NCBI GenBank assembly: GCA_965226745.1
Contig: CBDDDS010000005.1
Span: 18,389-82,388, forward strand
Direction: 5' to 3'
Source of the DNA: Dehalococcoidia bacterium
Lineage (GTDB): Bacteria > Chloroflexota > Dehalococcoidia > Lucifugimonadales > SAR202-VII-2
Length of the DNA: 64,000 bases
Shown here: one piece after another, positions 26,221 through 49,401 of the stretch
Layout of the letters: every line of letters starts with the position of its first letter
Position numbering within the stretch: the stretch's first letter is position 1
Notes under the pieces: model-generated
Told to the model about the DNA's origin: nothing
Seen by the model: only the letters and a program-made list of their open reading frames with translations
Database searches by the model: none
Position numbers and translations under genes: made by a program

Positions 26221-26262
26221 CCCTTCCCCCGCAGCCAGGGGCAGGTTAGGTTAGGATGGGGG
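26221..26262. repeat. REP-like intergenic repeat, variant copy
   Basis: CCCTTCCCCCGCAGCCAGGGGCAGGTTAGGTTAGGATGGGGG shares the CCTTCCCCC / GGGGCAGG / GGTTAGGATGGGGG blocks with the other copies. Confidence 0.5.
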
Positions 26263-27262
26263 CCGCGCAACAACTGGGCGCGCCAATGATCTATGCCACC
26301 CAAGGCGAGTACGCGCCTATGCCAACAATCCAATTCGGCGTTCAATACAATGGCATCGCCATGGCCGGCCTGGAGAACCCTCTGGACTTCGCCGAAAGGA
26401 TGGAAGGCCTGGGTTACCGCTCCTTCTTCGTCCCGGATATCGAAACCCTGCCGGTGCTCGACCCCCTGGTCCTGCTGGCGGCCGTGGCCCAGCGCACCCG
26501 CCGGATGCGGCTGGGCACTGGCGTCCTCGTCCTTCCCTTCCGCAGCCCATATCAGTTGGCCAAGGCCGTCGCCTCCCTCGATGTCCTTTCCCAGGGGCGC
26601 GTTGTGCTTGGCGTGGGGTCGGGCGGCATGTTTCCCAAGGACATGGAGGTGGAGGGCGTTCGGATGGAAGACCGCCGGTCATTGACCGACGAGCGCCTAG
26701 AGCTCGTCCGGCGGCTGCTTTCCGAAACGAGCGTCACGCATTACGAGCGTTCCACCACATGGACGACGCGACGTTGCAGCCGCGCCCTGCGCAGCAGCCC
26801 AACCCGCCGATCTGGACGGGCGCAATGTGGAACAATGGCTTCGCCAGGCACCCTCTTGAGCGGACGGCGCGTTGGGCCGACGGGTTTCACCCCAACGGTA
26901 TGCCTGCGCAGGCCTACGCAGAGGCCAAGGACATCATCAGCGAGTCGGCAGCCTCCCTCGGCCGGGACCCCGCTGCCCTGGAATGGTCCTGCAACATCTA
27001 CCTCTGCATGGGGCCAACGAAACAGGCGGCATTCCAGGAGGCCGAGAGGGCCATGGTCCAACGATACGGCGGCGACGCCTGGGACATTGACCCCGCGACC
27101 CTCATCCTAGGACCCGTCAGCGAGTGCGTGGAGACCATCGAGGAGTTCGCCGCCGCCGGCGTCACCCACTTCACCATCAACCCTCTCTGCGAACAGCCCA
27201 CCCTGGTGGCGAACTTCGAACAGTTTGCCGCCGAGGTCATCCCACACTTCGAACGCCGTTAA
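26256..27262 (+). pseudogene. LLM-class flavin-dependent oxidoreductase with a -1 frame break (or an assembly error)
   Basis: The N-terminal part (...FFVPDIETLPVLDPLVLLAAVAQRTRRMRLGTGVLVLPFRSPYQLAKAVASLDVLSQGR...) is in frame 0. The C-terminal part (MDDATLQPRPAQQPNPPIWTGA...THFTINP...) is in frame 2. The switch lies at about 26745-26752 (..THYER|FHHMDDA..), which is consistent with one missing nucleotide. Confidence 0.7.
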
Positions 27263-27271
27263 CGAGGCACT

Positions 27272-28276
27272 ATGAGATTTGGGGTCTTCGATCACCTGGA
27301 CCGGAATGGCCTGCCGCTCCACGACTACTACGAGACGCGTCTCAGGCTCATTGAGGCGTACGACCGCCTCGGCTTCCACGCCTACCACGTCGCCGAGCAC
27401 CACTCGACCCCCATCGGCATGGCCCCCTCCCCAAGCGTCTTCCTCTCGGCCATTGCCCAGCGCACCAAGCGGCTCCGCTTCGGCCCAATGGTCTATCCCT
27501 TGCCCCTCTACAACCCGCTGCGCCTCCTAGAGGAAATCTGCATGCTGGACCAATTGAGCGGCGGGCGCTTGGATCCCGGCCTTGGGCGCGGCTCGTCCCC
27601 GGTGGAAATGGCCTTCTACGGCGAGGAGCCCGGCAGGGCGCAGAGCCTGTTTGCAGAGGCTCTCGAAGTCTTGCTCATGGGACTGACGAAGCAGACGCTC
27701 GACTTCCACGGCGAACACTACGCCTTCGACAAGGTCCCCATGGAGCTCCAGCCATTCCAGAAGCCCCATCCCCCTCTCTGGTACGGCGTTCACTCCCCGG
27801 AGAGCGCCGAGCGGGTGGCGCGCCAGGGATTCAATTGCATCAGCCTCGACGCCCCCGCCGACGCCGCCCTGTGCTACGACCGCTATCGCGATGTCTGGCG
27901 CCAGGAGCGCGGAGCAGAGGCCGAGCTGCCGCTGCTGGGCATTGGCCGCTTCATCGTCGTCGCCGAAACCGACGCCGCTGCGATGGACCTGGCGCGACGG
28001 GCCTACCTCAAATGGCATGACAGCTTTACCCTGTTGTCCCGCACCTACAACAGGCCGGCAACACACCCTCGCCCCCAAGACTTCGACACCGTCTGCGAGG
28101 TCGGCCAGGGCATCGCCGGCTCGCCCGCGACCGTAGCCGCCGCGCTGCGCGTCCAGGTTGACCAGACAGGCGCCAACTACATCGTTGGCCAGTTTGCCTT
28201 CGGCGACCTCGCCTTCAACGACATCCTCGCATCCGTCGAACTGTTCGCCAACAGCGTGGCGCCAACCTTCCCATAG
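27272..28276 (+). CDS. LLM-class flavin-dependent oxidoreductase (luciferase-like monooxygenase)
   Basis: MRFGVFDHLD...AYHVAEHHSTPIGMAPSPSVFLSAIAQRTKRLRFGPMVYPLPLYNPLRLLEEICMLDQLSGGRL is typical of the LLM fold. Confidence 0.85.
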   Translation: MRFGVFDHLDRNGLPLHDYYETRLRLIEAYDRLGFHAYHVAEHHSTPIGMAPSPSVFLSAIAQRTKRLRFGPMVYPLPLYNPLRLLEEICMLDQLSGGRLDPGLGRGSSPVEMAFYGEEPGRAQSLFAEALEVLLMGLTKQTLDFHGEHYAFDKVPMELQPFQKPHPPLWYGVHSPESAERVARQGFNCISLDAPADAALCYDRYRDVWRQERGAEAELPLLGIGRFIVVAETDAAAMDLARRAYLKWHDSFTLLSRTYNRPATHPRPQDFDTVCEVGQGIAGSPATVAAALRVQVDQTGANYIVGQFAFGDLAFNDILASVELFANSVAPTFP

Positions 28277-31983: not shown

Positions 31984-33219
31984 ATGTTCATCGGTCATTT
32001 CACGGAAGAGCCCTGGCAGAAGGAGGACTGGCCCGTCGAATGGGGGTCCGGCGTGGTGCAGGTGAGCAACCGCGAGTACGACCCCATGCGCGCCTCTCAT
32101 TTGTACAACCGCTACCTCGACGAGAAGGTTTACGCCGAAGAGATGGGCTTCGACGGCATCATGCTCAACGAGCACCACAGCGCCCCCTTCTGCATGAACA
32201 GCGTCGCCAACGTCCAGGCCGCCATCCTGGCGAGGATCACCACCAAGGCCAAGATCCTCCTCCTGGGTAACATCCTGCCCATCCACGACGACCCCCTCTG
32301 GCTCGCGGAACAGTTGGCCATGATCGACGTGATTTCACGGGGGCGCCTCATCCCAGGCGTCGTCCGCGGCGGCGGCAGCGAGAGCCTCGTCCACAACACT
32401 CCACCGCATTTCAATCGCGAGCGCTTCGAGGAGGCCCACGACTTCCTCGTCAAGACTTGGACAACCCCCGGCCCCTTCCGCTGGGAGGGCAAGCACTTCC
32501 ACTACAGGTACGTCAACCCCTGGGCCGTCCCCATGCAGAAGCCCTACCCGCCCATCTGGGTCCCCGGCACCGCCAGCAAGGAGACCGTGGAATGGGCGGC
32601 CCAGCATCGCTATCCCTACATCATGCTGGCCAGCCAGATCGACCTCACCCAGCAGATGTATCAGGTCTACTACGACACCGCCAGGGAGGAGGGCTACGAG
32701 GCCGGGCCTCAACACCTCGGATTCATGTTCTTCTGCCACGTCGAAGAAACAGACGAGAAGGCAATGGAGGTTGGCCGCACGCTGACGATGGGCGTCCGCA
32801 GCCCCTTCGATCCCGGCGTGGAGCGGCCCCGGCCCTGGATCATGAGCCCTCCGGGCATCAGCACCGGCAGCGCCCGCGCCCTCCAGCGTCGAATGCTCGC
32901 CGTGGACTCCACCGGCCACACCCACGCCGGCGCCAGAGCATCCTTCGAAGACCAGGTGGCCACCCACGGCATGATCGTTGGCACCCCGGACACCGTCATG
33001 ACCAAGATTCGCTACATCATGGAAACGCTCCGTCCGGGAACCATCATCTTCCGCACCGGCGACGGCGCCATGAGCAACGAAGCCCAGATGCGCACCCTAA
33101 AGCTCATGGGTGAGGAGGTGCTTCCCAGGATGAGGGAGACGGCCAAAGAGCTGGACCTGCCCGGCCCCTACGACGTGGACCCCATGACCAACAAGACGCT
33201 CGCCGCCGTCGCTTCATAG
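31984..33219 (+). CDS. LLM-class flavin-dependent oxidoreductase, long (411 aa) form
   Basis: [12 protein letters not shown]...[63 protein letters not shown]. It is a tandem paralog of the next gene. Confidence 0.85.
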   Translation: MFIGHFTEEPWQKEDWPVEWGSGVVQVSNREYDPMRASHLYNRYLDEKVYAEEMGFDGIMLNEHHSAPFCMNSVANVQAAILARITTKAKILLLGNILPIHDDPLWLAEQLAMIDVISRGRLIPGVVRGGGSESLVHNTPPHFNRERFEEAHDFLVKTWTTPGPFRWEGKHFHYRYVNPWAVPMQKPYPPIWVPGTASKETVEWAAQHRYPYIMLASQIDLTQQMYQVYYDTAREEGYEAGPQHLGFMFFCHVEETDEKAMEVGRTLTMGVRSPFDPGVERPRPWIMSPPGISTGSARALQRRMLAVDSTGHTHAGARASFEDQVATHGMIVGTPDTVMTKIRYIMETLRPGTIIFRTGDGAMSNEAQMRTLKLMGEEVLPRMRETAKELDLPGPYDVDPMTNKTLAAVAS

Positions 33220-33273
33220 CGGTCCAACAGACGAGCAACGACACACTCTGCCGCAAGCAAAGCGAGGTAACCC

Positions 33274-34509
33274 ATGTTCATCGGCCACTTTACTGAGGAA
33301 CCCTGGCAGGTGGAAAACTGGCCCGAAGAATGGGGGCCGGGCATCATCAAGGTCAGCAATAGAGAGTACGACCCATATCTGGCCGCCGACCTCTATAACC
33401 GCTACATCGACGAGAAGCTCTATGCCGAGGAGATGGGCTTCGATGGCCTGATGCTCAACGAGCACCACAGCGCCCCCTTCTGCCTCAACGGGGTCGCCAA
33501 CGTCCAGGCCGCCATCCTCGCCCGCATCACCAAGAAGGCCAAGATCCTGCTGCTCGGCAATGTGTTGCCAATCCACGACGACCCTCTCTGGCTCGCCGAG
33601 CAGTTGGCCATGATCGACGTCATCTCAGGCGGCCGCCTCATCCCCGGCATCGTCCGGGGCGCCGGCAGCGAGAGCATCTCTCACAACGCCCCGCCCCACT
33701 ACAACCGCGAACGCTTCGAGGAGGCCCACGACTTCCTCATCAAGACCTGGACAACCCCAGGCCCCTTCCGCTGGGAGGGCAAGCACTACCAATTCAGGTA
33801 CGTGAACCCTTGGGCCGTCCCCATACAGAAGCCTCACCCGCCAATCTGGGTCCCGGGCACCGCCAGCAAGGAGACCGTGGAGTGGGCCGCCAAGCGCCGC
33901 TACCCCTACATCATGCTCTCCACCCAGGAGGAAATTACCCGCCAGATGTACCAGGTCTACTACGACACCGCCAGAGAGGAGGGCTACGAGGCCGGCCCGC
34001 AGCACCTCGGCTATATGTTCTTCCTCCACGTCGAGGAGACCAGAGAAAGGGCAATGGAGGTGGGCCGCACGCTGACGATGGGCGTCCGCAGCCCCTTCGA
34101 CCCCGGCGTACAGAAGCCCATCCCCTGGATCCTCAGCCCCCCGGGCATGAACAGCAAGGGCGCCAAGGCCATGCAACGCCAGATGCTCGCCTTCGACTCC
34201 ACCGGTCGCACCAGGGCGGGCGCTCTGGCCTCCTTCGAAGACCAGGTCGCAACCAATGGCATGATCGTCGGCACACCGGATGAGTGCGTGGCGCAGATAC
34301 GGCGCATCATGGAGTACCTCCGCCCAGGCATCATCATCTTCCGCACCGGCGATGGCGCCATGAAGCACGAGGACCAGATGCGGACGTTGAAGCTCATGGG
34401 CGAGGAAGTGATGCCGGCCATGCGCGACATCGCCAAGGAGTTAGACCTCCCCGGCCCCTACGACGTCGATCCCACGCCCAGCGAGGCCGTGGCCGTCGCA
34501 ACGTCGTAA
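33274..34509 (+). CDS. LLM-class flavin-dependent oxidoreductase, long (411 aa) form; tandem paralog
   Basis: It has the same length as 31984-33219, is colinear with it, and is highly similar along the whole protein ([12 protein letters not shown]...RTGDGAM...[11 protein letters not shown]). Confidence 0.85.
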
Positions 34510-34655
34510 CACCGGCATTGCGACGGGGCGGCAGGCCCAATCCCGTCCTGCGCGTCATCCGCCGCCCTCCCGCCGGCCGGGCTAACCCGGCATTGCCAGC
34601 CAGCCGGCGGGGCGGTACACTCCCGCACACCATCGCGTCAGTCAAAGGAGGAGCC

Positions 34656-35093
34656 ATGCCCCTCAACGTCGGCGACCAGGCCCCCGACTTCACCCTGCAG
34701 GGAACGGGAGACGTGGAATACACCCTCTCCAGCTATCGCAATAGCAAGAGCGTCGTGCTTGTGTTCTATCCGGGCGACGACACACCTGGTTGAACGCGCC
34801 AACTGTCGGCCTTGCGTGATGACAAGGCCCAGCTCGACGCAGCGGACGCCGTTGTCTTCGGCATGAACCCGGCGTCGCTCAGTTCCCATGACAAGTTCTC
34901 GACCAAGTACAACTTTCCCTTCGCCCTGCTGGTCGACCATGATGGCGCCGTGGCCCACTCCTACGACGCTCTTAAGGAAAACGGCAAAAGCATCCAACGA
35001 ACGGTCTATGTCGTCGACAAAGACGGCAAGATCGCCTTCGCCCAGGAGGGCATCCCCCCGGACAGCGACATCCTAGCGGCGCTCACCGGTTAG
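34656..35093 (+). CDS. bcp: Bcp/PrxQ-family peroxiredoxin with in-frame UGA (probable selenocysteine) at the peroxidatic position
   Basis: RBS AAGGAGGA, ATG at 34656. [14 protein letters not shown]...[12 protein letters not shown]-[TGA 34791-34793][26 protein letters not shown]... is colinear with the Bcp motif FYPxxxTPGCT....LRD. The upstream and downstream ORFs are in the same frame. Confidence 0.8.
34803..34832 (+). promoter_or_regulatory. candidate bacterial SECIS hairpin
   Basis: CUG(34803-05)/CAG(34830-32), a UC bulge, the 7-bp stem GGCCUUG(34808-14)/CAAGGCC(34823-29), and the loop CGUGAUGA. The loop starts 24 nt after the U of UGA and contains GU. Confidence 0.55.
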
Positions 35094-35172
35094 GGGCGCA
35101 CCCCAAGGACCTTGTCTCATGCGCGAGGCGGGCCAATCCTCTCCTCCCTCGCTTCCGGGGCAGGGACGGAGC

Positions 35173-36006: not shown

Positions 36007-36255
36007 GGCGCCGCTGAACAAACCCGCAGATCGATCGCGCTCCCTATCCGGCTATGCCGTAGTGCATGAACCTATGTAGACTATCCCGAACAGGCTACGG
36101 AACAAAGGGGCTCGCGGCGATGAGGACTACCGCATTTCCCATCCGAGTGACTCTATCGGAGCCACCGTTATGAACTACAGCGATGGGCCATTTTCGGATT
36201 GCTCTCCCAGCCCCCTGGATACCATGGCTATCTACGCTCTGTACCAAAACATCCC

Positions 36256-37452
36256 ATGACAACCAGGTCGAGCATAGCCAGGATGCTTCTCGCCGCTCTC
36301 TTGATCGCGGTGACCTTGGCGCTTTCCGGAACAGCGTGTGGTAGTCTTGGTCAAAGGCTTGGCGGACTCGTTGGTCGAGAACATTTTGGACCTAGTTGGA
36401 CCGCAGACGGAGAAAGCATAGTATTTGGCTATCGTTATGGGGCCTCCGGTGTGGGTGTGGGGGAAGTAGATAGCATATACTTGGTCAGCTCCGACGGCGC
36501 CGGGCTGAGGAAATTGATTCCACAGGACGCTCAGCCGGATAACGCGGCTGCATTTGATTATTCTCCAGATATAGCAGGCTCTAAGATAGCTTTCGCCACG
36601 CTACGGTACGTCAAAAGCGGTGATAGGGAATATGAGATCGCCACTGCGAACCTCGACGGTTCCGACTACAGGAGACTAATCGACAGCAACGGTTCGGACC
36701 TAGCCCCGGCATGGTCACCGGACGGCAAGCATATCGCCTTTGTCTCAAACCGAGCTGGATTCGCCTCCAAGGAGAATGATCAGGTTAGGGAAGCTTCTTT
36801 CAACGTCTATGTTATGGACGCGGATGGCTCGAACGTGTGGCCGATGGCTCCCAGAGTCTTCATCTCACTCTACCAGCCTCCCAGCCCGCCTAAGTGGTCC
36901 CCCGACGGCGACTACCTCGCCTTCCGAAGCGGATACCACCTGTACACCGCGCGCTTCGCGGGCGTTCCTAACTTTCTCGGTCTGACTAGGACCGATCCGG
37001 CCTGGTCTCCGGACGGCCAATGGATCGCGTTCAGCCATAGAGAGCCTATCCCGGAGACTGCGATGGCCGCAACGATATACATCACGAGGCCCGACGGTTC
37101 GGAGGCGCGCAGGGTGGTCCATTTGCCTGGGGGAAATCCCCAGAACCTGTCCTGGTCTCCCGACGGTTCTGCCTTGCGCTTCTCGTCTGATATCGGGGGT
37201 TACAAAGAAGTCATACATCGGATCGGGATCGATGGCTCGGGCCTTCAGCAGATCGCGGAGATCGATTACGGATCCCAGATCGCCTGGTCCCCTGATGACA
37301 GCAGGATTGTTGTATCCCGTATTGGGGCTACATTTTACTATTCAATAGAACCCCGAGATGCGTTGCTGTACACCATGGCGTCAGATGGATCGGACAGGCG
37401 CGTGCTGGTGCGGGTGGGTGATTTCGGCGCGGAGGCAGCGAATGGCGGATGA
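36256..37452 (+). CDS. PD40/TolB-like beta-propeller repeat protein, probable lipoprotein
   Basis: Start moved to MTTRSSIARMLLAALLIAVTLALSGTAC. Contains multiple WSPDG-type repeats (PAWSPDGKHIAFVS, PKWSPDGDYLAF, PAWSPDGQWIAFS, LSWSPDGSAL, IAWSPDDSRI). The GC content is lower than that of the flanks. Confidence 0.75.
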   Translation: MTTRSSIARMLLAALLIAVTLALSGTACGSLGQRLGGLVGREHFGPSWTADGESIVFGYRYGASGVGVGEVDSIYLVSSDGAGLRKLIPQDAQPDNAAAFDYSPDIAGSKIAFATLRYVKSGDREYEIATANLDGSDYRRLIDSNGSDLAPAWSPDGKHIAFVSNRAGFASKENDQVREASFNVYVMDADGSNVWPMAPRVFISLYQPPSPPKWSPDGDYLAFRSGYHLYTARFAGVPNFLGLTRTDPAWSPDGQWIAFSHREPIPETAMAATIYITRPDGSEARRVVHLPGGNPQNLSWSPDGSALRFSSDIGGYKEVIHRIGIDGSGLQQIAEIDYGSQIAWSPDDSRIVVSRIGATFYYSIEPRDALLYTMASDGSDRRVLVRVGDFGAEAANGG

Positions 37453-37568: not shown

Positions 37569-38807
37569 CTACCCGCCCGGCGAAAAGTCCCGCCACGTCT
37601 CCAGCACCGCCCTGATCTCCGCCATGCCGGGACTCTCGCCCGGCTCCGAGAACGGACTGCGCAGAATGCGGTCCCACTGGCCCCAGAACACCGTCTCAAC
37701 CTGAACGTCCAGGGATTCATTGTCGACGGCGTCGCGGATGACGTTCATTGGGTCGCCGCCATCTTCGGCAACGGCCATCTGCTCCTTGAGCAACCGGCGG
37801 TACATGATGATGCCCCTGTCGGATTCCCCCAAGTTCTCCATCGTCCGGTCCATGATCGGCCCTTGAAGCAACGCCACCATGTAGTCCTGGCTGGTCGTAT
37901 GCGTGGTGATGAACTTCCCGTCCTCGTCATAGATCGGCACGTGGCGGTGCGGCGTCACGTCCTGCTTCGGCGCCGTGGCCCCCGGAGCAGGCTTGAAGAT
38001 GCTGTACCAGTAGTGGCGCGTATGGACGTCGTCCACGGGAACACGGATTTGCAGCCCCTCCTTGATCTGGTCCCCAATGTAGAGCGTGTTGGGAAACAGC
38101 ACCGGGTGCCCCGTTCGCCATTCGTCGTCGTCCTCCGTCTGTCCGTCCAGCAGCCGGCGCTTGATGATGCCGTGCCTGAACGGGTCGAACCCAATCCGCT
38201 GATGCTTCCGCGGCTTGTAGCGGTCGTCCTTCACCTGGCTGCCGAAGTACCCGTGAAGCCACTCCACGTGGGTGGGGTCCATGGAGTTCTCCATCAGTTG
38301 CAGCCAGTTGCACGGCAAGTCCGTAATCCCGATGTCCCGTACGTCGTTCGTCCCAAGCAGTGGTCGCCAGCGAGGCAGAAGCGGCGCGGGCTCAGGGCCA
38401 ATGTAGCCCCACACAAGCCCGCCGAACTCCTGCACCGGGTGGCCCGTGTTGTCGAATTCGCGGCTGGGCGGCCCGGCGTCGCTCTCCAACGGCCGGTCCA
38501 CGCACCGGCCCTCCGCCGTGAACTTCCAGCCGTCTATAATGCAGCGTATGCCGCCCTCCTCCACGAACCCTCGCACCAAGTCCATGCCGCGGTGGGTGCA
38601 GTACCGGCCCAGAAGCCCCAGCTTGCCGGAAGGCTCCTGGAAAAGGACGAAATCCTCCCCCAGCAGGCGCACGGGCAGCGTTCGGGACTCCCTGTTCAGA
38701 ATCTCGCCGTAGGCGGCAATGGGGAACCAGTAGCAGCGCATCAGGCCGCCCATCGGGGTTCCCGGCCCCACCTCTGTCAGCAGCTTGTTTTCCTCAGCGT
38801 TCAACAT
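37569..38807 (-). CDS. Rieske-type non-heme iron oxygenase alpha-subunit-like protein with an atypical Rieske motif
   Basis: Start moved to MLNAEENKLLTEVGPGTPMG. The Rieske region is CTHRG-x15-CIIDGW, where the expected second His is Asp. The mononuclear-iron motif DPTHVEWLH is present. Confidence 0.8.
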   Translation of the reverse strand: MLNAEENKLLTEVGPGTPMGGLMRCYWFPIAAYGEILNRESRTLPVRLLGEDFVLFQEPSGKLGLLGRYCTHRGMDLVRGFVEEGGIRCIIDGWKFTAEGRCVDRPLESDAGPPSREFDNTGHPVQEFGGLVWGYIGPEPAPLLPRWRPLLGTNDVRDIGITDLPCNWLQLMENSMDPTHVEWLHGYFGSQVKDDRYKPRKHQRIGFDPFRHGIIKRRLLDGQTEDDDEWRTGHPVLFPNTLYIGDQIKEGLQIRVPVDDVHTRHYWYSIFKPAPGATAPKQDVTPHRHVPIYDEDGKFITTHTTSQDYMVALLQGPIMDRTMENLGESDRGIIMYRRLLKEQMAVAEDGGDPMNVIRDAVDNESLDVQVETVFWGQWDRILRSPFSEPGESPGMAEIRAVLETWRDFSPGG

Positions 38808-38973
38808 GATCAATTCCTTTGCCTTCCGGCCCTCGGTTGGAGGAAGCGGCCAGGCCATTGTAGCAAAGAAGGGACGGGAAGCCAGTGCTTCCGCCTGCCA
38901 TGGCCCGGCATCGGCTGCTCTTTTGGTATGCTATCCTGAGCCTGACATACCCAACACTCCCACAAGCGAGCCC

Positions 38974-40827
38974 ATGTACGTCGTTGGCACGGCAGGCCAC
39001 GTCGACCACGGAAAATCCACGCTCGTCAAAGCCCTCACCGGGATGGACCCCGACCGCCTTCAGGAAGAGAAGCAGCGCGGCCTCACCATAGACCTCGGCT
39101 TCGCCTGGCTCGAGCTTCCATCCGGCCGCGAGATCAGCCTCGTTGACGTCCCCGGCCACGAGCGGTTCATCAAGAACATGCTCGCCGGCGTTGGCGGCAT
39201 AGACCTCGCCCTCCTCGTCATAGCCGCCGACGAATCGGTCATGCCCCAAACCAGGGAACACCTGGCCATCCTCGACCTCCTCCAGGTGCGACGCGGGTTG
39301 GCCGTCGTCACCAAGCGAGACCTCGTCGACGACGAGATCCGCGACCTCGTTATCGAAGAGGTCGCCGACGTTCTGCGCGGCACCGCCCTGCAGGGCATTC
39401 CCATCCTCGCCGCGTCCGCAGTGACCGGCGAGGGCATCCCCGAGCTGCTCAAAACCCTGGACGAGCTTCTGGAGGAAACCCCGGTGCGGGCAGACAGGGG
39501 CCGGCCCCGCCTGCCGGTGGACCGCTCCTTTACCATGACCGGCTTTGGCGCCGTCGTCACTGGAACCCTGATCGACGGCTCTCTCTCCGTAGGCCAGGAG
39601 GTCGAGGTGGCCCCCAAGGGCCTCACCGGGCGCATCAGAGGCATCCAGACCCACAAGAAGAAAGTCGACGCCATCCAGCCCGGCAACCGCGCCGCCATCA
39701 ACCTCTCCGGCCTCTCCCACGACGACCTCGAACGCGGCGACGTCCTGGCGCTCCCCCGCCACCTCAAGCCCTCAACCGCCATCGACGTCCGGCTCAGGCT
39801 CATTCCCAGGGCGCCCCACGGACTGCGCCACAACGTCGGCGTTACGTTCCACACCGGCAGTAGCGAGAGCCCCGCCCGCGTGCGCCTGCTGGAGCGGGAT
39901 GCCGTTGAACCCGGCGAGGAAACCTGGGCTCAGATCAAGCTGGAGCACCCAACCCCCGTTCTGCGGGGCGACTTCTTCGTCATCCGCTCCGCAGACGCCA
40001 CGCTCGGCGGCGGGACCGTGACCGAGCCGCACGCCAAGCGCCGCCGACGCTTCCATCCCCCCACCCTCCGCCGCCTGGAGATCCTCGCCAACGGGACCCC
40101 GCGAGACCTTGTGCTCCAGGCCCTCGAAACCAGCCAGCCCAGCAGCCTCAAATCCCTGGCGCCCGCCGCCAACCTCTCCCTCGAAGAGGCCCGGCGCGAG
40201 ATCGACGGCCTTGTGAACGACGGCTCGATGGTTGCCCTTGGCGACCCTCCCAACGCCGTCTACTACACCTCCCCGGGCTGGCAGTCCCTCGCAGCCAAGG
40301 CCGCTAGCGCCCTCGCCGAGTTTCACCGGGAGCACCCCGTCCGCAGGGGCCTGCCCAAGGAGGAGCTCCGCAGCCGCCTCGCCCTCACCTCCGCCACGTT
40401 TGCCCAAGCCCTGGCCCTCCTTGGCGCCGAGGCCCAACTGGCCGAAGACGGCGCCCTGGTAAAGCTGGCCTCCCATCAGGTCCGGGTCAACCCGGAGGAC
40501 CGCCAACGCATGGAGCGGTTCGTCAAAGAGCTCCAGGCCGCGCCATTTGCTCCGGCGCCCCAAACGGCCCTGGACGCCGACCTCCTCAACGTCCTCGTGG
40601 ACGAGGGTACAATAGTCCGCGCGTCGGACCAGGTCGCCTTTGACGCCGTCGCCTTCCAGGAAATGGTCAACCTCGTGGTCGGGCGCACGAGGGAGCAGGG
40701 CAGCATCACGGTGGCCCAGGCGCGCGACCTCCTCGGCGCCAGCCGCAAATACGTCCTCGCTCTGCTGGAATATCTCGACGAGCAGCGAATCACCCGCCGC
40801 AACGGCGACGAACGGATTTTGAGATAG
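38974..40827 (+). CDS. selB: selenocysteine-specific translation elongation factor SelB
   Basis: Start at [46 protein letters not shown] (G1-G2 motifs). DVPGHERF and TKRD are present. The C-terminal winged-helix region ...[27 protein letters not shown] is typical of the SECIS-binding domain. Confidence 0.9.
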
Positions 40828-40829
40828 CC

Positions 40830-42002
40830 GTGGCCCTCGACTTCCTCAAGGTCGCCTCCCAAGTCGAGGCCATGGCCGATCAGGTTGTGGCCCGCGCCCC
40901 CCAATGGGGCCAACAGCTTGACCGCGCCATCCAGGAGTTGCGCCAAACGGAATACATAGCCCTGGAGAGCAAACGACGCCGGGCCAAGACAACGTTCCTC
41001 GTGCCGGGCATCACCGGCCCGCTGTCGCTGCAGGTCCCCTGCCCACCCCTGCCCCCGGATTTCGCCGCCCTCGCCGCCGACGGCTCACACATCGACGTCA
41101 GCCGCCACGCCGCCGCCCGCTACTTCCTGATAAACATCGGCGGCGTGGAGCTTCGCTACGGCTCGGCCCCCGGCGCCCGGCTGGAGAGCCACCCCCGCCT
41201 CTACACCGACCCTGAAGACATGGCCGTCACCGACCCCCTCGATGGCCTGCGCCCCCAGCTCATCCAGGGGCAGTTGCTGGGGCTCATGCGGGGCATCCAG
41301 GAGCTCCAAGCCCTCGCCGCACTCGCCCTCGTGGACGGCTCGTTGATTCTGCTGAGTCTCCTCGGGCAAACCTTTCCCGACTACGTCAAACGCAAGCTGT
41401 TGCAGGAGCAGTTCTTGCCCGCTCTGGCCCAGCTCCGGTCGCTGGCCGAAAGAAGGCCCCTGGCCGTCGCCGGCTACATCAGCCTTCCCAACAGCGCCGA
41501 GGTCGTCAATGCCCTGCGGGTCTCCCTCTGCCCCTATGACCCCCCCAACTGCGACGCCCATTGCCGCGCCATCCGCCCGGGTGACCGCCCCTGCGATCCC
41601 GTCGACGGCCTGCGCGACAGGGAAGTCCTGGCGCGCCACCTCGCTGAGGGCGAGCGCTCCGGCGTCTTTTCCAGCCAGTCCTCGGTCGTCCAGGACTGGT
41701 ACGGGGAGCACGAGGTGTGCTTCTTCTACGTCAACGCCGGCAACGAGATTGGCCGCGTAGAAGTCCCCGCCTGGGTCGCCCACGAGGAAGACCTCCTCTC
41801 GCTCACCCACGCCCTCGTGGTCGATCAGAGCAGACGGGGCCTTGGCTACCCCGCCGCCCTCTCCGAGGCTCACGAGCAGGCCGTAGTTACGGGCCGCGAC
41901 CGCCAGGAGTTCGCCCGGCTGGTGGAGGAGTCGCTCCAACGGCGGGGGCTTGCGCCCTCCACTTCGGAGAAAGACGCGTCGAAGAGGCTCAAGTGGCTAT
42001 GA
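40830..42002 (+). CDS. nurA: NurA-domain 5'-3' nuclease
   Basis: The GTG start lies 2 nt after the selB stop. ...ALAADGSHIDVSRH..., ...LALVDGSLILLSL... and the length of about 390 aa match the NurA pattern. Confidence 0.75.
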   Translation: MALDFLKVASQVEAMADQVVARAPQWGQQLDRAIQELRQTEYIALESKRRRAKTTFLVPGITGPLSLQVPCPPLPPDFAALAADGSHIDVSRHAAARYFLINIGGVELRYGSAPGARLESHPRLYTDPEDMAVTDPLDGLRPQLIQGQLLGLMRGIQELQALAALALVDGSLILLSLLGQTFPDYVKRKLLQEQFLPALAQLRSLAERRPLAVAGYISLPNSAEVVNALRVSLCPYDPPNCDAHCRAIRPGDRPCDPVDGLRDREVLARHLAEGERSGVFSSQSSVVQDWYGEHEVCFFYVNAGNEIGRVEVPAWVAHEEDLLSLTHALVVDQSRRGLGYPAALSEAHEQAVVTGRDRQEFARLVEESLQRRGLAPSTSEKDASKRLKWL

Positions 42003-42580: not shown

Positions 42581-42659
42581 CCCCGCCGTTGCTCAGGACG
42601 CCACGGCGGGTCGGATGGCAACCTCCCCCCGCTGGAGGCCGCGTGAACCAGGAGGGCCA

Positions 42660-44318
42660 ATGAATCAAATCAATCAATGGGATGGCAACCAGGCCCGCCC
42701 CCTCGGCGTCGTGGTCGCCGGCGCCCTTTCCCAGGGCGTCGAGGTCAAGCTCGACCCCGATACCTCCGTGGAGGCCATCAAAGCGGGGACCTTCGTCACC
42801 ATCCAGGGCGCTCAGCACCGCTACTTCGGCCTTGTCACCGACGTAACGTTGCAATCCCTCGACCAGCGTATGCAGATGTCCCCGCCCGACCTGTCCAACC
42901 CCCTCATTGCGCAGGTCATGCAGGGCGCCGGCTTCTTCGGCGTCATGTCCGTCAGGCCGGAGGTCACCATCACCGGCGACGCCTCCTCCATGCTGGACGG
43001 CCCCCAGCCGGCCAAATCAGTCCCCTCCCACTTCTCCCGCGTGTTCACGGCCTCCGAGCAGGACATCGCCCTCGTATTCGGAGAGGAGGACGAGAAGCAC
43101 TTTCACATCGGCACGCCGCTGGACATGGAGACCAAGGTCTGCCTGGACCTGGAGGCCTTTTCCCAGCGCAGCAACGGCATCTTCGGCAAGAGCGGCGCCG
43201 GCAAGAGCTTCCTCACCCGCCTCATCCTCGTGGGCCTCATACAGAGCAACGTTGCCTCCACCCTCGTCTTCGACATGCACGGCGAGTACGGCTGGGAAGC
43301 GCGCGACCCCGAACGCGGCCGCACCGTCAAGGGCCTCAAGCAGCTCTTCCCGTCCAACGTCGCCGTGTTCTCCCTCGACGAGGAAAACGCCCGCCGCCGC
43401 AACCTCTCCCCCGACCACCTCGTCCGCATAGGCTACGGCGAGATCGAACCGGAGGACATCGAGCTGTTGGCGGGCACACTCAACCTCACCCCAATCCAGA
43501 CGCAGGTCGTGCCCCAGATAGCCCGCCACTTCAACCGCAACTGGCTGAAGGGCTTTCTGGACTTGCCCCGCGACGGACTCTCCGAGCTGGCGACGCAACT
43601 GAACGCCCACGAAGGAACCCTGGGGGCGCTGCGCCGCAAGCTGGCGACCCTGGAGCACATGCAATTCCTCACCGCGTCGGACGCCGGCGGCGAGGAGGCC
43701 ATGCGCCGCATCCTCGAGTACCTCGACCGCGGCATGCACGTCGTGCTGGAGTTCGGGCGCTACGGCAGGGACATCACCGCCTACGTCCTCGTGGCCAACC
43801 TCCTCTCCCGCCGCATCCACGAACGCTACGTCCGCCGCACCGAGGAGTTCATGGGGCGCGCCGGCCAGATGCCCCAACCCCTGGTCATCGTCATCGAGGA
43901 GGCCCACCGCTTCCTCAACCCCGGCATCGCCCAGCAGACCATCTTCGGCAACATTGCGCGGGAGATGCGCAAGTACAACGTGACCCTTCTCGTCGTCGAC
44001 CAACGCCCAAGCGGCATCGACGACGAGGTCATGAGCCAGATCGGCACCAAGATATGCTGCCTCCTCGACAACGATCGCGACGTCGACGCCGTCCTGACCG
44101 GCGTTTCAGGAGGGCGCGAGCTGCGGCGCGTGCTCTCCAGGCTGGAAAGCAAGCAGCAGGCGCTCATCTTCGGGCACGCCCTGCCTCTGCCGTTGGTGGT
44201 GCAGACCAGGGAGTACGGCTCCGCCGATTCCTACGCCCAGCTCCAGGGCTTCCGCCATCAGAGAGACCTTGCCCAGCAAATGGACCGGGACGCCGACGAC
44301 CTCTTCGGAGAGCGCTGA
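42660..44318 (+). CDS. herA: HerA/FtsK-superfamily ATPase (HerA-like)
   Basis: Start moved to the ATG at 42660 after AGGAGGG. N-terminal barrel (PLGVVVAGALSQGVEVKL...GTFVTIQG...YFGLVTDV), Walker A GKSGAGKSF, Walker B LVIVIEEAHRF, and LLVVDQRPS. Confidence 0.8.
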   Translation: MNQINQWDGNQARPLGVVVAGALSQGVEVKLDPDTSVEAIKAGTFVTIQGAQHRYFGLVTDVTLQSLDQRMQMSPPDLSNPLIAQVMQGAGFFGVMSVRPEVTITGDASSMLDGPQPAKSVPSHFSRVFTASEQDIALVFGEEDEKHFHIGTPLDMETKVCLDLEAFSQRSNGIFGKSGAGKSFLTRLILVGLIQSNVASTLVFDMHGEYGWEARDPERGRTVKGLKQLFPSNVAVFSLDEENARRRNLSPDHLVRIGYGEIEPEDIELLAGTLNLTPIQTQVVPQIARHFNRNWLKGFLDLPRDGLSELATQLNAHEGTLGALRRKLATLEHMQFLTASDAGGEEAMRRILEYLDRGMHVVLEFGRYGRDITAYVLVANLLSRRIHERYVRRTEEFMGRAGQMPQPLVIVIEEAHRFLNPGIAQQTIFGNIAREMRKYNVTLLVVDQRPSGIDDEVMSQIGTKICCLLDNDRDVDAVLTGVSGGRELRRVLSRLESKQQALIFGHALPLPLVVQTREYGSADSYAQLQGFRHQRDLAQQMDRDADDLFGER

Positions 44319-46192: not shown

Positions 46193-47149
46193 TCACAGCC
46201 CCTTCCCCACCTCCGCCAGCAAACGGACCGTTCGGTCCCACGACGCGTCGGGGTCCGGCCCCACCGGGATGATGTCGGCAATCACCTCGCCCATGCCCCA
46301 ATCGAAAAGCTCCTTCACCCGCAGCGCCACGTCCTCCTCCCCTCCGGAGATGGCCAGCGCGTCCAACATAGCGTCGGTCCACTGCCCCGTCTGCTCCGCC
46401 TCCGGAAAGCCCGCCTCTGCGAGCATCCGGGCGTAGAAGGGCCGCGTCGGATAGTGGGCCAGGTACTCGCGCACGACCCGGCGGACTTCCTCCCGGTCCT
46501 CGTGCACCACCACCGGCATGTGGGCCACCAGAGGCGGCGCCTCCCTGCCCGCCTTCTCCGCGCCTCGCCGCATCGCCGGCAACGACTCGTCGCGCAGGTA
46601 TTCGTAGGGGCTCACCCAACTAATGGCGCCGTCGGTCAGCTCTCCTGACAGCGCATAGGAGCCCGGCCTCAACGCCGAAATCATGATGCCGATGTCCGGC
46701 GCCGGGGCTTCCAGCGCCCCGTGCGCGTGATAGAACTCCCCGGAGAAATCTACCTCTCCCTCCGTCACCGCCGTCCGCATGATCTGGACGTACTCCCGCA
46801 GGCGCGACAGCGGCTTCACCCACTCGTAGTGGTACACCGACTCCACACTGGGCTGGTGGCTTGGCCCAAGTCCGATGCGGAACCTCCCGGGCGCCAGGTT
46901 CGCAATTGCAATTGACTGCTGCACGGCCACCAGAGGATGCCTGGGGTAAATGGGCGTAATGGCCGTGCCCAGCATGATGGACTCCGTCCGGGCCGCCGCA
47001 GCCGCCAACACCGTGAGGCCGTCGGGCCGCATCCCCCCCGTCGTCAGCCAGGCCGCCTGGATGCCCGCCTGTTCTAGGGCCTCCACACGAGCCACCATCT
47101 CCTTCGTATCGCCTCGCATGGCTGCAACGCCGACGCGCTTTGGGTACAT
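46193..47149 (-). CDS. LLM-class (probably F420-dependent) oxidoreductase
   Basis: ...EALEQAGIQAAWLTTGGMRPDGLTVLAAAAARTESIMLGTAITPIYPRHPLVAVQQSIAIANLAPGRFRIGLGPSH... is typical of LLM F420-type reductases. Confidence 0.8.
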   Translation of the reverse strand: MYPKRVGVAAMRGDTKEMVARVEALEQAGIQAAWLTTGGMRPDGLTVLAAAAARTESIMLGTAITPIYPRHPLVAVQQSIAIANLAPGRFRIGLGPSHQPSVESVYHYEWVKPLSRLREYVQIMRTAVTEGEVDFSGEFYHAHGALEAPAPDIGIMISALRPGSYALSGELTDGAISWVSPYEYLRDESLPAMRRGAEKAGREAPPLVAHMPVVVHEDREEVRRVVREYLAHYPTRPFYARMLAEAGFPEAEQTGQWTDAMLDALAISGGEEDVALRVKELFDWGMGEVIADIIPVGPDPDASWDRTVRLLAEVGKGL

Positions 47150-47473: not shown

Positions 47474-47749
47474 CTACCGGGGCGCCAGTAGTTCGCCGTA
47501 CCCGAGTTCGACTCGGCCGTCATCGACGTGTCTGAGCAACACGCGGATGTCAGAGCCATCCGGCGCCAACGTAACCAGCCTATCGAACGGGATGTACACC
47601 GCGATTCTGCTTCCATCAGGCGACCATGACGCGTAGCCCGGGGGTATGCCATAGTCCGAAAAGGAGATGAAGCCTGAGCCATCAACGTTCACCACGTGCC
47701 TCCCGTCGAGCAGCACGCTGCTTCCGTCCGGTGACACGCTGAGTTCGCT
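47474..47749 (-). pseudogene. PD40 beta-propeller gene fragment (C-terminal ~90 aa) truncated by the IS
   Basis: SELSVSPDGSSVLLDGRHVVNVDGSGFISFSDYGIPPGYASWSPDGSRIAVY...LVTLAPDGSDIRVLLRH... begins exactly at the left end of the IS. The upstream part of the tracked ORF is antisense to the IS. Confidence 0.6.
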
Positions 47750-47782
47750 TGACCTGCTCCCCGAAAACCGGTCCACGGATAA

Positions 47783-48082
47783 TTGGAGTCCTCCGGTCAA
47801 ACAGAGGAGGACAGCATGCGGAGGAGCAGGTTTACGGACGAGCAGATCATCGGGGTCCTGAGGGAGGCGGACGCGGGAGTGCCGACGGCCGAGGTATGCC
47901 GCCGACATGGTGTCTCACCGGGGACCTTCTACAACTGGAAGGCGCGGTTCGGCGGGATGGGCGTGAGCGAGGCGCGACGGCTGCGCCATCTGGATGAGGA
48001 GAACCGGAAGCTGAAGCAGCTGCTGGCGGAGGCGACGCTCGACAATCACGTCTTGCGGGAGCTGCTCCGAAAAAACGCATGA
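47783..48082 (+). CDS. IS3-family transposase OrfA (HTH)
   Basis: [48 protein letters not shown]...[14 protein letters not shown] is the typical IS3 OrfA HTH plus leucine zipper. Confidence 0.85.
48070..48076 (+). promoter_or_regulatory. candidate -1 programmed ribosomal frameshift site (A AAA AAC)
   Basis: The X XXY YYZ heptamer is in the OrfA frame, just before the OrfA stop. OrfB is in the -1 frame. OrfA TGA and OrfB ATG overlap as ATGA. Confidence 0.6.
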
Positions 48083-48918
48083 CGCCTGCAACGCGACGGG
48101 AGACCATGCACCGTGTCCAGGAGCGGTGGGGCTTCAGCGAGCGTCGCGCCTGCAGGCTGATGGGTATCCACCGATCGGTGGCCCGCTATAGGCGGGTGGG
48201 CAGCGACGCACCCGAACTCCTCAAGCGACTGCGCTCGCTCGCCGCGGAGCGGCGGCGCTTCGGGTATCGCCGGTTGTGGGTGTTGTTGCGCCGGGAGGGG
48301 TTCGGCGTGAACCACAAGCGGGTCTACCGGCTCTATCGGGAGGAGGGGCTGTCCGTCCGGCGTCGGAAGCGCAAGCGGATGGCGGGCATCGCTCGCGTCC
48401 CCACGATGGCGCCCGAGCGCCCGAACCAGCGGTGGTCGATGGACTTCGTGTCCGATGCGCTCGCCAGTGGCCGGCGGATACGAGTGCTGACGGTGATTGA
48501 CGACTTCACTCGGGAGAGCCTGCCCATGGAGGTGGACACGTCGTTGCCCGGCCTCCGCGTGACAAGGGTGTTGGACAGGCTGGCCATCGACCGTGGCCTG
48601 CCGGAGCTGATCACCGTAGACAACGGCCCTGAATTCGCCGGGAGGATTCTGGACGCTTGGGCGTATGCACATGGGGTGCATCTGCACTTCATCGATCCGG
48701 GCAAGCCCGTGCAGAATGCGTACATCGAGAGCTTCAACGGGCGGCTTCGCGACGAGTGCCTCAACGAGCACTGGTTCATGAGTCTTCCTGCGGCCCGGAA
48801 CATCGTCGAGCGCTGGCGGGACGACTACAATGCTGTCCGGCCCCACAGCGCACTGGGCAACCGGACGCCCGAGGAGTTCGCACAACAGGTGGCTAGGAAT
48901 ACGCCGGTCGGACTCTAA
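48079..48918 (+). CDS. IS3-family transposase OrfB (DDE/rve integrase core)
   Basis: [10 protein letters not shown] (D), [12 protein letters not shown] (D) and [23 protein letters not shown] (E) give the rve-type catalytic triad context. Confidence 0.9.
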
Positions 48919-48950
48919 GAATACTTGGACCTAATTCAGGGGGCAGGTCA

Positions 48951-49401
48951 GCCGGCAGACGACTACATATACTTCATAGGGTGGCGCTATTCAGGCGGAT
49001 TGTTGAGGGTCACCCTTAATTCTGTTCGCAGCGACGGCTCTGATGAGCGCGAGCTCGTCAACCTCACTGATTTTCGCGAAGCCGACCAACTCAGCGTGAG
49101 GGAGATCAGCCTGTCACCCGACGGTAGCAGCTTGCTGCTCGACGGGAGGCACGTGGTCAACGTTGATGGCACAGGCTTCATCTCCCTTGGGAACTATGGC
49201 TTAGGCCCAGGTTATGCGTCATGGTCGCCTGATGGGAGCAGAATCACAGTGTACTACAACCCGAAGGTGGACGGGAGGTTGATCTGGAGGAGCATTGCGC
49301 TGGTTACGTTGGCCCCGGATGGCTCTGATGTCCGCGTGTTGCTCAGATACGGTAAAGACGGGCTCGAACTCGGGTACGGCGGACCACCGAATCCTCGGTA
49401 G
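48951..49401 (+). pseudogene. PD40 beta-propeller gene fragment (N-terminally truncated by the IS)
   Basis: ...PADDYIYFIGWRYSGG...ISLSPDGSSLLLDGRHVVNVDGTGFISLGNYGLGPGYASWSPDGSRITVY...LVTLAPDGSDVRVLLRY.... The reading frame enters from inside the right IS repeat, and there is no signal peptide. Confidence 0.6.

Follow-up and report, generated by a model that had tools for sequence, protein, structure and literature searches.

The stretch of DNA analysed here, called the window below, comprises 64,000 nt (64% GC) of contig CBDDDS010000005.1 from the Dehalococcoidia bacterium assembly GCA_965226745.1, and all coordinates and strands refer to it. We focused on positions 34656-35093 of the (+) strand, where an earlier reading of the sequence (the original prediction) had proposed that an in-frame TGA encodes selenocysteine (Sec) at the catalytic cysteine (Cys) of a Bcp/PrxQ peroxiredoxin (Prx), and that the gene (prx) is consequently listed as two open reading frames (ORFs). 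The TGA at 34791-34793 is in frame with an ATG at 34656 and a TAG stop at 35091-35093, and in the ORF list the reading breaks off at this TGA and resumes without a change of frame at TTG 34812, giving a 93-amino-acid (aa) ORF, which bears out the claim that one ORF is split there. In the list of features that follows, L001 and L002 (~1 Mb each) and L003 are metagenome contigs from the European Nucleotide Archive (ENA), L051 is the Chloroflexi bacterium SAR202-VII-2 metagenome-assembled genome (MAG), L004 is a groundwater Chloroflexi MAG, and L064 is Candidatus Solibacter (Acidobacteriota).

34593-34621, (+) strand: weak, consensus-only match to a sigma-70-like promoter, TTGCCA-17-TACACT (1 site versus 0.1 expected in shuffles)
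34645-34651, (+) strand: Shine-Dalgarno sequence AAGGAGG, 4 nt before ATG 34656, conserved in L001 and L002
34656-35093, (+) strand: probable complete selenoprotein gene for a 145-aa Bcp/PrxQ-like Prx, based on PF00578 and on the ratio of nonsynonymous to synonymous substitution rates (dN/dS) on both sides of the TGA
34791-34793, (+) strand: UGA very probably read as selenocysteine U46, in the peroxidatic Cys column; same codon in L001, L002, L003, L051, L004, and L064
34808-34829, (+) strand: candidate bacterial selenocysteine insertion sequence (SECIS) hairpin, GGCCUUG-CGUGAUGA-CAAGGCC, with a 7-bp stem and an 8-nt loop
38974-40827, (+) strand: selB, Sec-specific elongation factor, 617 aa from ATG 38974 (longest ORF 38785-40827)

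The split leaves an upstream fragment of 45 aa and a downstream fragment of 93 aa. Replacing the stop with Cys gave a 145-aa product with the Sec position at residue 46, and the PF00578 (AhpC/TSA) profile spanned the UGA, aligning residues 5-128 with profile positions 1-123 of 124 (E=6e-35) at a score of 120 bits versus a cut-off of 26. The nearest solved structures were BCP/PrxQ proteins, namely 5enu, 3drn, 5iiz/3gkk (Xanthomonas BCP), and yeast DOT5 2a4v (E=5e-20 to 1e-13), with the 1-Cys protein AhpE of Mycobacterium tuberculosis (Rv2238c, 1xxu) close behind. The full-length profile match and the structure alignments support the proposed colinearity with Bcp/PrxQ, and in those alignments the stop fell onto the peroxidatic Cys, as had been predicted. 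The active-site residues of the 145-aa protein are P39-x3-T43-x2-U46 and R115, with the motif T43-P-G-U46. The protein contains no Cys, and the +5 position, where a resolving Cys would be expected, is Ser51. The codons between the TGA and TTG 34812 (TRQLSA) are kept as protein and align with Prx helix alpha-2. TTG 34812, the start that ORF callers assign to the 3' fragment, sits inside a conserved hairpin stem, and no Shine-Dalgarno sequence comparable to AAGGAGG precedes it. The top NCBIfam matches were PrxQ/Bcp models, with scores below their equivalog cut-offs (NF053650, 78 versus 260 bits; NF006960, 77 versus 140), which places the protein on a divergent branch that is Bcp/PrxQ-like and not equivalog.

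Two clusters of 93-aa fragments (95% and 80% identical) emerged from a protein search, in which no full-length homolog exceeded 56% identity; the nearest Cys relatives, at ~50-56% identity, belong to Acidobacteriota, Gemmatimonadota, and Sumerlaeota. Aligned DNA showed that the TGA is shared by four close SAR202 relatives, L001 and L002 (~97% aa identity) and L003 and L051 (~80%), and L051, which carries it, was also the closest genome (81% identity) in a scan of one genome per species. The same split into 45 and 93 aa is present on contigs L001, L002, and L003. All 13 variants in the 90% protein cluster of the 93-aa fragment have the length of the window's fragment, which suggests a common split point in every one; the 10 variants known for the 45-aa fragment likewise match the window's in length.

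Compared with L003 and L051, dN/dS was ~0.06-0.11 upstream of the TGA and 0.10-0.12 downstream, at synonymous rates (dS) of ~0.9-2.3 that place synonymous sites near saturation, and the prx frame contained no further stops or frameshifts. The original prediction had named a decayed downstream frame in relatives with the same stop as a sign against it; the frame was instead intact and under purifying selection. TGA ends 13 of the 30 confident genes in the window, which indicates a standard genetic code and led us to reject an alternative code with TGA as a sense codon. Together, the conserved TGA, the dN/dS of ~0.1, the intact frame, and the use of TGA as a normal stop exclude a recent nonsense mutation, a sequencing error, or a reassigned code as the origin of this codon.

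The TGA also occurs in two distant lineages, L004 (56% identity) and L064 (47% identity). Across 80 genome loci, the codon at the peroxidatic column was TGC or TGT in 77 and TGA in 3 (L051, L004, and L064), which is the Cys/Sec alternation among orthologs that had been suggested as a check. A search of metagenomes aimed at FYP-x3-TPG with TGA-AC next to it gave at least 120 matches, and nearly every match listed reads through into a complete PrxQ-like domain. The comparisons below set 100 distinct Sec forms against 60 Cys forms. Ser occupies +5 in each of the seven TGA forms that protein similarity retrieved: five from SAR202 (the window included), L004, and L064. Among 101 metagenomic and genomic Sec forms the +5 residue was Cys in 34, Ser in 21, Arg in 18, and Gln in 12, versus Cys in 47, Asn in 10, and Ser in 3 of the Cys forms. 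The prediction that the protein lacks a resolving Cys and is a 1-Sec enzyme therefore holds for the window, which has no Cys at all, but fails as a general rule. We also discarded the idea that Sec always accompanies loss of the resolving Cys, as loci L156 and L203 and the 34 of 101 Sec forms counted above retain Cys at +5.

Immediately 3' of the TGA, nucleotides 34808-34814 can pair with 34823-34829 to close the loop CGUGAUGA at 34815-34822, which begins CGUGA on the conserved Arg54-Asp55 codons. The hairpin starts 17 nt, and its loop 24 nt, after the U of UGA, and its calculated free energy (dG) is -10.7 kcal/mol. A longer hairpin had been proposed at 34803-34832; its 7-bp upper stem and the 24-nt loop distance are present, but its lower stem is not conserved. 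That 3-bp lower stem, CUG/CAG with a UC bulge, was rejected as a conserved element, its third pair being broken in L002, L003, and L051. The 22-nt hairpin itself carries no substitutions in L003 and L051 and one loop change in L002, compared with ~20-25% nucleotide divergence elsewhere. Similarly, dS over codons +1 to +14 was 0.22-0.36, versus ~1.0-1.1 for the remaining 3' part of the gene. The bSECISearch model (Zhang and Gladyshev 2005) is reported to place the apical loop of a bacterial SECIS ~16-37 nt from the UGA, with a G among the first two loop bases. The geometry of the candidate hairpin matches that of bacterial SECIS elements under these rules.

Hairpins in the same register with different stems were found in L004, L064, L156, and ~30 metagenomic Sec forms. 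Hairpins of other sequence begin at the window's distance of 17 nt from the U in L004 (UGCCCU/AGGGCA), L064 (CCAACUG-CGUGA-CAGUUGG), and L156 (CCAGUUC-CGGGA-GAACUGG). A hairpin absent from TGA-carrying orthologs would have counted against the original prediction; what we observed was a hairpin kept within the clade and replaced elsewhere by other stems in the same register. In a pre-specified register test, which asked for six pairs ending at a loop that begins 24 nt from the U, all six pairs were present in 34 of the 100 Sec forms and in 0 of the 60 Cys forms (Fisher p=1e-8). In 31 Sec forms and no Cys form, the loop of the best perfect hairpin started precisely 24 nt from the U, the distance seen in the window; the mean dG of the best hairpin was -8.1 kcal/mol in Sec versus -4.7 kcal/mol in Cys forms (p=2e-9). 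Fold z-scores over the 45 nt after the codon averaged -1.12 in Sec and -0.07 in Cys forms (p=7e-9), and 90% of the best hairpins of Sec-PrxQ genes have a G in the first two loop bases. In the class with six of six pairs, the loop begins CG[U/G]GA, the Arg and Asp codons of a conserved (F/L)RD motif, and the stems, which come from neighbouring codons, vary widely, with 11 different 5' arms.

Two further observations concern this motif. In the metagenome loci (L084-L203), at 24-28 nt after the UGA, half of the Sec forms encode its Arg as CGU or CGG, so that the loop reads CG[U/G]GA, and 43 of the 60 Cys forms encode it as CGC. Another 43 of the 100 Sec forms have CGCGA and appear to rely on a separate hairpin with a loop that starts 20 nt from the U.

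The original prediction had placed selB 3.9 kb downstream, and we found this gene with its likely start, ATG 38974, at that distance from the prx stop and with a TIGR00475 score of 334.7 bits versus a cut-off of 242. Its orthologs in L001 and L002 carry the SelB beta-barrel and winged-helix Pfam domains, and dN/dS relative to L051 was 0.09. The gene is syntenic with prx in L001, L002, and L051, lying 2.5 kb downstream of prx in L051; the gene order in L001 and L002 is two luciferase-like monooxygenases, prx, enoyl-CoA hydratase, Rieske oxygenase, selB, and NurA. Among the matches listed, selB was found in the flanks of 0 of ~120 other Sec-PrxQ loci. Linkage to selB was accordingly rejected as a general Sec-PrxQ feature, as among these loci only those from SAR202 have it nearby.

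The surroundings of selB and of the L004 gene are recorded here as separate observations. A NurA nuclease gene (40830-42002, PF09376) and then a gene for a HerA-like ATPase (42615-44318) directly follow selB; 3 nt separate the selB stop from the NurA start, and NurA follows selB in L001 and L002 too. In L004 (region 157-1679), a tRNA-Thr/Tyr/Thr cluster and an EF-Tu gene lie ~3.6 kb upstream of the Sec-prx gene, and the match of the SelB query in this MAG is EF-Tu, not SelB.

A number of results weigh against reading the UGA as Sec with this hairpin as its SECIS. The original prediction had suggested folding 34791-34850, and although the stem-loop at 34808-34829 is present there, the 60-nt fold did not exceed shuffles in stability (z=-0.06). 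Over the same search range, ~6% of random TGA trinucleotides in the window have a perfect hairpin of equal stability after them, and 3.6% do when one of the first two loop bases must also be a G. Judged on its own sequence, the window hairpin is only weakly better than chance, and the case consequently rests on comparison with other sequences. The element matched no Rfam family in a gathering search of the whole window or in a permissive search of 34600-35100; those searches gave no SECIS or tRNA-Sec model, and their sole matches were spurious (E>0.9). A pair count on nine sequences with 8-nt loops favours the hairpin: 92% of cells were paired, 5 of 7 pairs were changed on both sides, 0 of 500 shuffles matched the observed score, and slid partners were at most 57% paired. 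The 92% is partly circular, however, because 8 of the 9 rows came from sequences (or the clade) that pass the register pairing test. The independent, non-circular control for pairing is the contrast between Sec and Cys forms, for which the Cys controls come mostly from one subfamily while the Sec set is more diverse. Finally, no selA, selD, or tRNA-Sec was detected in the stretches covered, namely the window (64 kb) and the 10 kb that precede it on a 3.33-Mb ENA contig (ERZ28763718:ctg125183). Pfam and NCBIfam scans of most of the larger coding-like ORFs in the window gave no selA or selD, and no tRNA-Sec was found near the prx gene in L001, L002, L004, L051, L064, L156, or L203. Separately, scanning the window for other in-frame TGAs with coding-like G+C content at third codon positions (GC3) on both sides revealed no additional selenoprotein gene; the matches were off-frame artefacts typical of GC-rich DNA, or true gene ends.

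Taking both sides together, we consider that 34656-35093(+) is one gene for a Bcp/PrxQ-type Sec peroxiredoxin in SAR202-clade Chloroflexota, with a probability of about 0.88 on the sequence evidence, and that its in-frame TGA very probably does encode selenocysteine at the catalytic residue. The comparative data support insertion of Sec at U46 by a SelB- and SECIS-dependent route. Under this model, the UGA at 34791-34793 would not be read as a stop, the mRNA hairpin at 34808-34829 would serve as a bacterial SECIS, and the winged-helix C-terminus of SelB would bind the hairpin and deliver Sec-tRNA(Sec) to the ribosome, so that Sec is inserted as residue 46. By analogy with the Prx family mechanism, the U46 selenolate may attack peroxide to form a selenenic acid. 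Since the +5 residue is Ser51 and the protein has no Cys, it would be of the 1-Cys (1-Sec) type and an external thiol must resolve the selenenic acid; recycling may proceed through a mixed selenenyl-sulfide with thioredoxin, glutaredoxin, or a small thiol as the reductant.

We weighed four other explanations for the interrupted gene. The UGA could be recoded or read through without Sec, either by near-cognate insertion of Trp, Cys, or Arg, perhaps stimulated by the hairpin, or as Cys through the Sec pathway at low selenium. Under limiting selenium, the Sec pathway is able to decode UGA as Cys or Trp at a low level, and selA, selD, and tRNA-Sec were not seen in the window or the 10 kb upstream of it. 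We nevertheless regard this as improbable, since the intact SelB is under purifying selection and has no known role besides Sec delivery, and since the UGA falls exactly on a redox-active Cys column whose Sec/Cys alternation is a selenoprotein signature. In addition, the hairpin, with its loop 24 nt from the U and a G at loop position 2, fits the bSECISearch rules, its geometry is common to about one third of other Sec-PrxQ genes, and TGA acts as a normal stop elsewhere. A pseudogene, in which a nonsense mutation from TGC or TGT to TGA left two decaying remnants of a Cys-PrxQ ORF, would agree with the two unnamed fragments (45 and 93 aa) given by public gene callers and with a catalytic Cys codon that is one mutation away from TGA. 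Decay is hard to reconcile with a TGA kept despite dS of ~0.9-2.3, a downstream dN/dS of ~0.1, and a frame free of other lesions, or with the recurrence of the TGA in unrelated lineages with a hairpin in the same register and the maintenance of selB nearby, and we therefore hold a pseudogene to be very improbable.

The two fragments might also be separate small proteins, a 45-aa N-terminal and a 93-aa C-terminal part that form a split, non-catalytic redoxin fold. Both fragments are conserved and TTG 34812 could act as a start; however, this TTG lacks a ribosome-binding site and is itself part of the conserved hairpin stem, the intervening TRQLSA codons are kept and align with Prx helix alpha-2, and a split would remove the catalytic residue from an active site that is otherwise intact (P39, T43, and R115). 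This arrangement has very little to recommend it. A false TGA introduced into an ordinary Cys-PrxQ gene by sequencing or assembly error is a concern for any window taken from a metagenome assembly, yet identical TGAs are present in independent assemblies from different samples (ERZ25067264, ERZ26167216, ERZ27247699, ERZ28763718, and GenBank QEVV01000006), and the 13 and 10 fragment variants all have the lengths of the window's fragments, which leaves such an error with a negligible chance.

Beyond the identity of the gene, a more speculative and on balance unlikely proposal concerns its biology. In a narrow SAR202 subclade (group VII-like), the entire Sec-decoding machinery might be maintained mainly or exclusively for a 1-Sec PrxQ that lacks Cys and whose gene remains linked to selB. 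Sec would have been selected because a selenenic acid resists irreversible over-oxidation. Such resistance would benefit a heterotroph living aerobically in the deep ocean, in which many flavin and luciferase-like monooxygenases (two are encoded directly upstream) leak peroxides. Separately, a SECIS loop placed on the Arg-Asp codons across the Sec-PrxQ family would co-constrain a protein and an RNA motif, which may explain repeated Cys-to-Sec conversions in this family.

The rest of the window has several features of its own. Paralogs of luciferase-like (FMN/F420) monooxygenases include the two in tandem directly upstream of Sec-prx (31984-34509) and others at 27272-28276 and 46193-47149, and the window also contains amidohydrolase_2, hydantoinase B, CoA-transferase III, and Rieske genes, a paralog-rich oxidative catabolism typical of SAR202. 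The region 26256-27262 holds a luciferase-like monooxygenase ORF with a normal beginning that passes into low-complexity sequence rich in Arg, Ser, and Pro, and ORF 26759-27262 carries on in a different frame, which may reflect a frameshift in the gene or a faulty assembly. A TolB-like beta-propeller gene (36199-37452) with a GC3 of 0.62 versus ~0.86 in its neighbours separates the enoyl-CoA hydratase gene from the Rieske oxygenase gene. It is absent from the syntenic L001, where the enoyl-CoA hydratase and Rieske genes adjoin, and is probably a strain-specific insertion.

An insertion sequence (IS)-type transposase gene (HTH_21 plus rve integrase core, 48079-48918) is located between the opposed ORFs 47474-47908 (-) and 48925-49401 (+), which encode near-duplicate beta-propeller-like segments, 'SPDGS...HVVNVDG.GFIS...YASWSPDGSRI'. 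The region 57848-64000 holds tRNA-Asn (57848-57922) and, directly after it, phage-like minus-strand genes, including a prohead serine protease (PF04586, 60661-61317) and large portal/terminase-like ORFs at 59291-60334 and 62805-63989. This region looks like a prophage, or the remnant of one, integrated at tRNA-Asn.

The value of the prx gene is mainly one of corrective annotation, and established knowledge on Sec-peroxiredoxins and on how SECIS elements work is unchanged by it. In every public assembly examined, gene calling reports a 45-aa and a 93-aa fragment in place of this gene, neither with a name, and the same split is likely for many Sec-PrxQ genes in soil and marine metagenomes, so that the peroxide-defence repertoire and the selenium dependence of these organisms are under-reported. 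The assignment would bring SAR202, a Chloroflexota clade that is abundant in the dark ocean and noted for its oxidative catabolism, into the group of selenocysteine users, and would imply a selenium requirement for part of the clade. The SECIS loop register on the Arg-Asp codons, which held in 34 of the 100 Sec forms and in none of the 60 Cys forms, could also serve as a simple and specific rule for spotting Sec-PrxQ genes.

Sec-containing Prx proteins (PF00578, TxxU) are a listed bacterial selenoprotein family (PMC1794560, PMC2398784, PMC5029168, PMC13188914), with 12 sequences in the 2006 genome survey (Zhang et al.; PMC1794560), 253 in the Global Ocean Sampling (GOS) marine data of 2008 (PMC2398784), and 78 organisms in the 2016 genome survey (Peng et al.; PMC5029168). 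The original prediction had noted that such proteins are known from selenoproteome surveys, and they have indeed been catalogued since 2001-2008 and are abundant. Our literature search found no paper that pairs SAR202 with selenoproteins; the nearest statement concerns the joint occurrence of selA and selB in bins of sponge symbionts from various phyla. UxxC and UxxS motifs define the Prx-like thiol:disulfide oxidoreductase selenoproteins (2026 review, PMC13188914). The window protein has U46-T-R-Q, which matches neither motif, and membership of that group was ruled out.

PrxU of Eubacterium acidaminophilum is, in the review's citation of Sohling et al. 2001 (PMC13188914), a biochemically characterised Sec-peroxiredoxin. 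Like the predicted product of the window gene, it carries Sec at the peroxidatic position of a peroxidase with the AhpC/TSA fold, and it provides an experimental precedent for production of a Sec-Prx in bacteria. It belongs to another Prx subfamily, with a 233-position model of the AhpC/Prx1 type (NF040737), to which the window protein scored 51.3 bits versus a cut-off of 270; the window protein is thus not a PrxU ortholog. Bcp/PrxQ proteins are closer. They share with it a monomer-sized chain (145 aa in the window), the FYPxxxTPG(C/U)T signature, the conserved Arg in 'RTVYVVD', and the full set of catalytic Pro, Thr, peroxidatic residue, and Arg (P39, T43, U46, and R115). The window protein differs from them in having Sec for the peroxidatic Cys and, compared with atypical 2-Cys Bcp, in having Ser51 in place of the resolving Cys at +5.

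The candidate SECIS resembles the E. coli fdhF type in being a stem-loop that lies shortly 3' of the UGA inside the coding region and has a G among its first two loop bases. Unlike that type, the window element has no sequence similarity to fdhF and no Rfam match, and in the Prx family the loop is anchored on conserved Arg-Asp codons while the flanking codons form a co-varying stem. With the Sec-Prx family itself, the window protein shares PF00578 across the UGA, a UGA on the T-x-x-U/C column of PxxxTxxU, abundant Cys homologs, and a conserved SECIS-like hairpin immediately 3' of the UGA, which are among the features that define that family. What sets the window's clade apart within the family is its placement in SAR202, a Ser at +5 in a protein with no Cys, and synteny of the gene with selB.

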